In this document: piece after piece, positions 27,657-28,159 of the stretch
How the letters are laid out: every line of letters begins with the position of its first letter
Position numbering within the stretch: the stretch's first letter is position 1
Sequence record: PV648359
Source of the DNA: Escherichia phage LF82-1
Strand: one strand, 5' to 3'
Length of the DNA: 64,000 bases
Notes under the pieces: model-generated
Told to the model about the DNA's origin: nothing
Seen by the model: only the letters and a program-made list of their open reading frames with translations
The model's database searches: none
Made by a program: the position numbers and the translations under genes

Positions 27657-27845
27657 TTATCGAAAATCAGCTTCAAAAACTTTCTCGTCATTAATAAATG
27701 CTTTAACTAATGCATTGTTCACTTCAGCAAGTTGTACCGTAACCCACTCGATTTCTTCGCGATCACCTGATAACATGATATCTTTAGTGAACATCTCGCC
27801 GCTTTTAAACCAGCCAATAAAAGTAACTTTAGTTAATTTGCTCAT
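27657..27845 (-). CDS. dmd: Dmd, discriminator of mRNA degradation (antitoxin against RnlA/LsoA-type toxins)
   Basis: ORF track 27657..27866; start at MSKLTKV..; matches recalled T4 Dmd (F.GWFK...MFTK.I, AEVN.ALVKAFI.D.KV.E.D.R). Confidence 0.7.
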   Translation of the reverse strand: MSKLTKVTFIGWFKSGEMFTKDIMLSGDREEIEWVTVQLAEVNNALVKAFINDEKVFEADFR

Positions 27846-28159
27846 ATTTCCTCGCAAAATGCCCATTCAGCGTGATAAACTGTAGCACCTTTAGTATTAT
27901 TCATTTGAACTACGTCTACCGGAGAAATTACTCGATAGAGACGTGGTTCACCTCCATAAGAGCGTGCTGCTCGTCCTGCATAAATCTTTGCTAAACCGAT
28001 ATCTTCAGTAAAGAATACACGATTCAAGTTTTTCTTACGTCCAGTTTCAGACAGAACTCCTGTTTCCTCAGGAGGACAAAGCATGTTTTCGATGTTAGCT
28101 GAACTACTTGAACCGTGATAAAAAATCTTAAATTCTGCTTTACAATCGATGGTTTTCAT
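27842..28159 (-). CDS. hypothetical protein inserted between dmd and gene 41
   Basis: 105 aa; own early promoter; dmd and 41 are adjacent in T4 (recall). Confidence 0.5.
   Translation of the reverse strand: MKTIDCKAEFKIFYHGSSSSANIENMLCPPEETGVLSETGRKKNLNRVFFTEDIGLAKIYAGRAARSYGGEPRLYRVISPVDVVQMNNTKGATVYHAEWAFCEEI

Follow-up and report, generated by a model that had tools for sequence, protein, structure and literature searches.

The DNA analysed here, referred to below as the window, is a stretch of 64,000 nucleotides (nt) from Escherichia phage LF82-1 (sequence record PV648359), and the subject of this study is an open reading frame (ORF) of 105 amino acids which lies on its minus strand between gene 41 and dmd. 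The ORF is a real gene under strong purifying selection, and both profile and fold comparisons suggest that it encodes a minimal protein with an ADP-ribosyltransferase (ART) fold, the nearest characterised relative of which is Arr. We propose that the product, named hereafter the phage ART, probably serves as an early and stand-alone NAD+-dependent effector of host takeover or counter-defence.

The interval between gene 41 and dmd

The original prediction had described an ORF with its own promoter between dmd and gene 41, and the ORF list and the promoter scan now provide its exact limits together with a sigma-70-type promoter (Table 1). The TGA stop codon of the ART gene overlaps the ATG start codon of dmd in the tetranucleotide ATGA at 27842-27845. 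On the other side of the ART gene, the product of gene 41 is 85% identical to gp41 of a T4-type genome.

Table 1. Positions in the window of the ART gene, its conserved motifs, its expression signals and the neighbouring genes
Feature	Position	Strand	Basis or remark
ART-fold gene, 105 amino acids, ATG to TGA (PHROG 2110; putative minimal Arr-related protein)	27842..28159	-	ORF list, profile matches
Codons of H15-G16-S17, HG[ST] NAD-site motif, end of strand 1	28109..28117	-	Equivalent to Arr-ms H19-G20-T21; H15 and G16 invariant in A1 and A2
Codons of E38-T-G-R41, E-x-G-R loop motif, followed by K42-K43-N44-L45	28037..28048	-	Equivalent to Arr-ms E40..R43; E38 and R41 invariant in A1 and A2
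Codons of F49 (strand 2, equivalent to Arr-ms Y49) through Y60 (following helix)	27980..28015	-	Conserved aromatics 11 positions apart
Ribosome-binding site GGAG, 6 nt 5' of the ART ATG	28166..28169	-	Read from the sequence
Sigma-70-type early promoter, TTTACA-17-TACTAT, TG before the -10 element	28186..28214	-	Promoter scan
Hairpin with 9-bp stem and UUCG loop, between the gene 41 stop and the ART promoter	28220..28241	-	Sequence; not called by the terminator scan
Gene 41 (replicative helicase), upstream boundary	28245..29687	-	DnaB_C match
dmd, second cistron, best read as 62 amino acids	27657..27845	-	Pfam Dmd 1.4e-20; PHROG Dmd 6.7e-33
Second promoter of the same shape, TTTACA-17-TACTAT with TG, just 3' of dmd	27613-27641	-	Promoter scan
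122-amino-acid ORF headed by the second promoter, lipoprotein-like signal sequence	27216..27584	-	DUF5481, phrog_1754
Imm_superinfect membrane protein, 82 amino acids	26906..27154	-	Pfam 1.8e-15; phrog_1039 'immunity to superinfection'
spackle	26549..26842		Neighbourhood annotation
219-amino-acid ORF, homologue at the T4 61.2 position just downstream of spackle	25897..26556	-	phrog_3781; 65% identity to T4

The expression signals of the ART gene recur among its homologues. A GGAG or GGAGA element is kept upstream of homologues, and a promoter of like shape was found in 20 of the 33 loci that were checked, in several phage genera, at a distance of 42-59 nt from the start codon (52-59 nt in 19). 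No promoter was found on the minus strand when the interior of the ART gene was scanned. The single upstream promoter, the ATGA overlap and this lack of a minus-strand promoter within the gene lead us to infer that the ART gene and dmd constitute one early bicistronic unit, in which ART is the first cistron and the two genes are translationally coupled. The hairpin preceding the promoter is not a canonical terminator because no U-run follows its stem, and it could be an element by which the gene 41 transcript is stabilised or processed at its 3' end. The two plus-strand ORFs within the ART region, of 40 and 56 amino acids, received no support.

Homologues of the ART gene are widely distributed. 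The product matches phrog_2110, a family of 'unknown function', over its full length (E 1e-59); tblastn recovered homologues in 609 phage records, and an exhaustive profile search collected 246 relatives. The identity to the window copy in the tblastn comparison is 95-100% in Mosigvirus, 84-90% in Dhakavirus and Gaprivervirus, and 60-80% in T4-like phages of Klebsiella, Enterobacter, Erwinia, Acinetobacter, Aeromonas and Vibrio. The ratio of nonsynonymous to synonymous substitution (dN/dS) against seven homologues is 0.07-0.12, with dS going from 0.8 to above 2 and synonymous sites near saturation, and in the same genome pairs the phage ART is 77-90% identical compared with 65-68% for gp41 and 67-68% for Dmd. 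The gene is thus more conserved than the gp41 helicase, a notable degree of constraint for a small early accessory gene. A chance ORF is ruled out by the dN/dS values together with the 609 homologues.

A predicted ART fold with Arr as nearest relative

In order to place the protein, single-sequence searches, profile comparisons and structure prediction were combined. The single sequence reached the Pfam family Arr-ms at E 0.077 with 13.6 bits, below the cutoff of 25, and gave no match by phmmer against the PDB sequences. Three alignments were used for the profiles, namely A1 (40 close family members), A2 (a wider family alignment of 45 sequences) and A3 (genuine Arr proteins). The profile of the close homologues, A1, had no match in the PDB; profile A2 recovered Arr-ms (2HW2) with E 0.003, and the alignment of the ART family to A3 by hhalign had a probability of 95.4% and E 1.7e-8 over 74 columns, covering ART residues 7-84. 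Of the 53 multidomain relatives that carry the domain, 28 reach E<=1e-4 against Pfam Arr-ms; ten were scanned singly, and three of these exceed the gathering score. For the AlphaFold model built from A2 (pLDDT 85.9), the top PDB match in Foldseek is Arr-ms 9iaf (E 3.9e-3, probability 1.00, TM 0.60), followed by KptA/Tpt1 (9ldc, 8tfi, 9ld4), PltA, ParT, RES toxins and cholera toxin, all of which are ART folds; the split beta-sheet of the ART fold can be recognised in the predicted model with modest significance. The window protein is thus predicted to be an ART-fold protein with a core of ~95 residues and with Arr as the nearest characterised relative, a relation which rests on the profile and fold comparisons and extends over residues 7-84.

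The homology and structure search suggested in the original prediction has therefore returned an answer, by profile A2, hhalign and Foldseek alike. That prediction had called the ORF unknown, which holds insofar as it has no tested function; a literature search for experiments on this protein found none. However, its Arr-related ART fold is recognisable, and the protein had already been predicted as an ART, both in GenBank, where some records name the product 'putative ADP-ribosyl transferase', and, almost certainly, in PMC9503650. The gene has thus been noticed in the literature and is uncharacterised, although it is widespread and constrained; the model phage lacks it at this locus.

The residues which do not vary across A2 are H15, G16, E38, R41, F49, A57 and G69, and Y60 is nearly invariant. 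The strand-1 motif of the ART-superfamily NAD site, headed by H or R, is present here in the form H-G-[ST]. The invariant E38 is localised in the loop between strands 1 and 2, and the E..GR signature to which it belongs is also invariant or nearly so in A3. Towards the C-terminus the similarity is lost: both the hidden Markov model and the hhalign alignments to Arr stop just before DPN, at Arr residue 82-89, and since the chain ends at residue 105 the phage ART is without a counterpart of Arr residues 90-143, including the helix that contacts rifampin. The NCBIfam model rifampin_ARR (NF033144) did not match the ORF, and the scores of the relatives do not exceed 25.7 bits for a cutoff of 130. 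On these comparisons the phage ART is best regarded as a distinct, truncated sister family of Arr.

Proposed function and alternatives

In the mechanism that we propose, synthesis of the phage ART would begin as soon as infection has started, directed by the early promoter of the gene, with dmd as the cistron that follows. It would bind NAD+ through H15-G16-S17, E38..R41-K-K and the pair F49/Y60, and would then transfer ADP-ribose to a host acceptor, or to a nucleic-acid or small-molecule acceptor. It would act independently of Dmd, which may represent a lineage-specific passenger on the ART transcript. Judging from the sequence, the protein is predicted to be catalytically active with somewhat better than even confidence, and we infer that its role is takeover or counter-defence. 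An early effector directed at the host is suggested by the early-type promoter of the solo genes, of which the window copy is one, together with the context of the domain in multidomain relatives. These are 53 proteins of 200-3924 amino acids, in which the partner domains include ART-PolyVal (8/53), NUDIX (3) and DUF7178 (3), as well as portal, minor-tail, CHAP, GNAT, Toprim, ddrB-ParB, LPD23 and 2H phosphoesterase domains. Such partners, as assigned by domain matches, are the repertoire of polyvalent proteins, which have been argued to be packaged or transferred with DNA and to act in the first moments of invasion (Iyer et al. 2017, PMC5512222).

Several observations weigh against this proposal. 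The Tyr at position 49 which is critical in Arr is Phe (F49) in every member of the ART family, and the equivalent of Arr D84 is not conserved: the window protein has N88, and among the relatives D, N, H, S, A, T or P is found. E103 is conserved in the T4-like members only, and a catalytic acid shared by the whole family was not found, no acidic residue after residue 70 being conserved throughout it. With a TM of 0.60 the fold match is modest; a first AlphaFold model, obtained from A1 (pLDDT 84.4), had ART folds as its top matches, including Tpt1/KptA 8tg3, none of them below E 0.1. At residue 88, where the window has Asn, Asp is found in the 97%-identical cluster representative P0001 and in most T4-like members; since the position varies across the family, no functional meaning is attached to this Asn.

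Because of F49, the variable residue 88 and the restriction of E103 to T4-like members, a non-catalytic role in binding NAD or ADP-ribose has to be considered. The protein would then be a catalytically dead ART-fold binder, acting as a sponge or decoy for NAD+, ADP-ribose or an ADP-ribose-derived immune signal. This alternative, which we judge unlikely, agrees with the lack of a conserved acid at the Arr D84 position or in the last strands outside the T4-like subgroup, with the change of Y49 to Phe, and with a very small, early protein encoded among counter-defence genes. However, the residues which the family keeps invariant are those of the ART NAD site (H-G-[ST], E..R and the aromatic pair), and Phe can still stack on nicotinamide: F49, the strand-2 aromatic, could do so without the Tyr hydroxyl, with Y60 placed 11 residues later. 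Furthermore, ARTs of the Tpt1 type likewise act with no catalytic acid, and the domain sits among enzymes in polyvalent proteins.

Returning to an active phage ART, the family conserves no acid at the place where the catalytic one is usually found, which suggests that the acceptor may be one which needs no general base, for example an RNA or DNA terminal phosphate modified by Tpt1/KptA-like chemistry; we offer this as a speculative idea with a rather low likelihood. In relative P0183 the domain is fused to a 2H phosphoesterase, and three relatives are fused to NUDIX. Both 2H and NUDIX enzymes process ADP-ribose derivatives, and the ADP-ribose cyclic phosphate which Tpt1 generates is among those handled by 2H enzymes; the fusions are a hint at Tpt1-like chemistry, not evidence for it. 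It is established that chemistry of the Tpt1 type proceeds without a catalytic acid, the phosphate acceptor itself being the nucleophile (review PMC8883491). Taken to its furthest point, which we hold to be improbable, the phage ART would be among the smallest active ARTs, with its core of ~95 residues, and would modify, in an acid-free manner, an RNA or DNA terminal phosphate (an 'ADP-ribose cap') or a small-molecule immune signal, thus disarming defence or protecting phage transcripts alongside Dmd. If true, acid-free acceptor modification would represent a new phage counter-defence chemistry.

A second alternative concerns the neighbour. A predicted ART, the 'p0068 family', was described beside Dmd in Escherichia, Shigella and Salmonella phages, the two being read as toxin and antitoxin (Iyer et al. 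2022, PMC9503650 section 3.7.1). Judging by its description, the p0068-family ART is almost certainly the present gene. Its authors assigned it to the H-Y-[EDQ] clade, but the comparisons made here place the window ART nearest Arr and Tpt1. According to that proposal the ART is a toxin and the Dmd encoded downstream its cognate antitoxin, which we find hard to sustain and give a small chance of being correct. The arrangement in the window is as expected for such a pair, since the genes are adjacent and apparently co-transcribed (one promoter and the ATGA overlap), and the order ART-Dmd is kept in Mosigvirus, Dhakavirus and Gaprivervirus. Other clades often have a different small ORF directly 3' of the ART gene, sometimes with an ATGA overlap, which could reflect swapping of antitoxins. 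However, ATGA overlaps are the norm in dense early regions, and the two genes do not consistently occur together. In a survey of 56 IMG/VR (metagenomic viral) loci, made by tblastn with calling of the upstream and downstream ORFs, Dmd comes directly after the ART in 9/56; gene 41 precedes it in 12/56. Some ~300 ART records belong to Klebsiella, Acinetobacter, Aeromonas, Enterobacter, Cronobacter and Vibrio phages, and none of these hosts is among the top ten of the Dmd hit list. On the side of Dmd, 558 of 790 records have less than 60% identity to the window Dmd, a band which holds the Dmds of T4 type, and the T4-type genome has dmd without an ART gene there. A direct comparison is given by loci L018 and L019, in which the ART is 89% identical to that of the window and is preceded by the same gene; L018 continues with Dmd and L019 with an unrelated ORF of 188 amino acids. 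Host RNases are the established targets of Dmd, namely RnlA and LsoA (Otsuka and Yonesaki 2012, as cited in PMC11825919).

The ORFs downstream of the ART gene belong to at least six unrelated families, or are lacking altogether. Elsewhere the gene is followed by hydrophobic proteins of 55-60 amino acids (phrog_7619), by proteins of 79-81 amino acids (phrog_7668), or by others of 124 or 151-155 amino acids, and the search downstream for a conserved partner gene yielded only unrelated small-ORF families. The pairing of ART with Dmd is lineage-specific, being confined to one group of genera of E. coli phages, and does not constitute a general toxin-antitoxin rule. The 188-amino-acid ORF at the Dmd place of L019 (3295 onward) has an N-terminus resembling a signal peptide. 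At the dmd place of Kanagawavirus-like phages there is an acidic, zinc-ribbon-like peptide of 41-46 amino acids with two CxxC pairs (L003 2816-2956; L020, L021, L022). On the upstream side, loci of Slopekvirus (Klebsiella) and Biquartavirus (Aeromonas) always have an unknown protein of 250-306 amino acids before the ART (phrog_7439/7204; L006 893-1762, L007 980-1741 and ~15 further loci), a neighbour more widely conserved than Dmd; no homologue of it was found in the window.

The comparison with T4 bears on the origin of the arrangement. The interval from the end of gene 41 to dmd measures 58 nt in the T4-type genome and holds no ORF, so that the gene order given for T4 in the original prediction is correct, and the same ORF, whose presence there with a housekeeping role had been named as grounds for rejection, does not occur at this junction. 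The T4-type genome was searched over its first 50 kb, which hold the early region, by tblastn and with the family hidden Markov model, and no ART homologue was found; absence of the gene from the remainder of T4 rests on the organism counts in the ART and Dmd tblastn lists. The ORF had been described as inserted, and it does lie between gene 41 and dmd. Insertion itself, however, does not follow: the order of gene 41 and the ART gene is common to Mosigvirus, Dhakavirus, Gaprivervirus and Kanagawavirus, and because the ART gene has the same position in Dhakavirus, Gaprivervirus and Kanagawavirus, gain of the gene and its loss in the T4 lineage are equally likely. The near-identical Mosigvirus phage phiC120 has an additional ORF of 124 amino acids between gene 41 and the ART gene (L001 2571-2945; phrog_10668, unknown function), without a counterpart at 28160-28244 of the window, so the junction is variable even within the genus.

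The third and weakest alternative refers to Arr itself, the hallmarks of which are the HGT motif, the SN[YF] loop, Y49, the catalytic D84 in DPN[VL], and a rifampin pocket formed partly by the C-terminal alpha-2 helix M[RK][DE]xL (PMC6092378). It is extremely improbable that the phage ART is a genuine Arr with which the phage inactivates rifamycins and so shields the host RNA polymerase on which it depends, since, although among the characterised families Arr is the nearest to it in both sequence and fold, the protein falls below the cutoffs of both PF12120 and NF033144, its homology ends at Arr 82-89, and it has no SN[YF], no DPN[VL]/D84 and no alpha-2 helix M[RK][DE]xL; a function in rifampin resistance is accordingly rated as very unlikely on sequence grounds.

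The surroundings of the early ART effector proposed here had been described in the original prediction as a place where anti-defence genes cluster, next to the antitoxin Dmd. In the window the neighbours are indeed of this kind, namely Dmd, an Imm-like protein, Spackle and the homologue at the 61.2 position, and an anti-defence role of the phage ART is plausible from its gene context and from the recurrence of the domain in injected polyvalent proteins; the argument from location is weak, since most carriers have the ART gene away from gene 41 and dmd. The Imm_superinfect gene lies between the DUF5481 ORF and spackle; the annotation of the T4-type genome has its 'Phage immunity' genes elsewhere, between genes 42 and 43. 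At the position of the DUF5481 ORF, T4 has a different gene, of 85 amino acids. The 219-amino-acid ORF and T4 61.2 we take to be AdfA, the anti-DarT factor. If the start is at Met8, residue 164 of this ORF is Arg, i.e. the RB69-type allele. Such an allele (Arg164) has been reported to be unable to neutralise DarT1 (PMC11825919).

The ART gene is carried by >600 sequenced T4-like phages, including phages that infect Escherichia, Klebsiella, Acinetobacter, Enterobacter, Aeromonas and Vibrio; these bacteria are frequently considered as targets of phage therapy. That it has never been studied is probably due to the apparent lack of the gene in the model phage T4. The phage ART is compact and easy to test as a candidate for a new host-takeover or counter-defence enzyme, and may serve as a minimal scaffold for ART catalysis without the canonical acid. 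The distinction from the rifampin-resistance Arr is relevant to the safety screens of therapeutic phages that flag 'Arr-ms' matches.

Comparison with known ARTs

Compared with Arr (Arr-ms 2HW2/9IAF, Arr-2 9IBA; PF12120), the phage ART has in common the HG[ST] motif, the E-x-G-R loop, the strand-2 aromatic, the next helix and the V-x-P-x-G strand. Both are very small single-domain ARTs, of 105 amino acids in the phage and 140-150 in Arr. The loop which in Arr reads SN[YF] is T34-G35-V36 here, and the gene of the phage ART is expressed early from a phage genome, in contrast to Arr as a resistance gene of bacteria.

Tpt1/KptA forms the second group of fold matches. The HGT-type motif of strand 1 is common to both, and both are without a catalytic glutamate, although the fold E-values are only 0.1-0.4. 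Tpt1/KptA consists of two lobes, the N-terminal RNA lobe carrying the R-H-R-R tetrad. An assignment of the phage ART as a Tpt1 orthologue was rejected, since it is a single domain of 105 amino acids with no N-terminal RNA lobe, has no Pfam Tpt1 match at E<=1, and resembles only the NAD lobe.

The Pfam families ART-PolyVal and Tox-ART-HYD2 co-occur with the present domain in the same giant proteins of phages and conjugative elements. ART-PolyVal is a distinct family of 140 positions with H-Y-D residues, beside which those proteins carry the present domain as a second ART module of smaller size.

Finally, the T4-type genome has modA/modB. T4 Alt, ModA and ModB belong to a different clade with an R-S-E active site, are 2-6 times larger and have no detectable sequence similarity to the phage ART; Alt has in addition a role in toxin neutralisation. 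In spite of these differences, the proposed role of the phage ART would make it a further case of the same strategy, in which early or injected phage ARTs, NAD+-dependent in T4, serve for host takeover at the start of infection.

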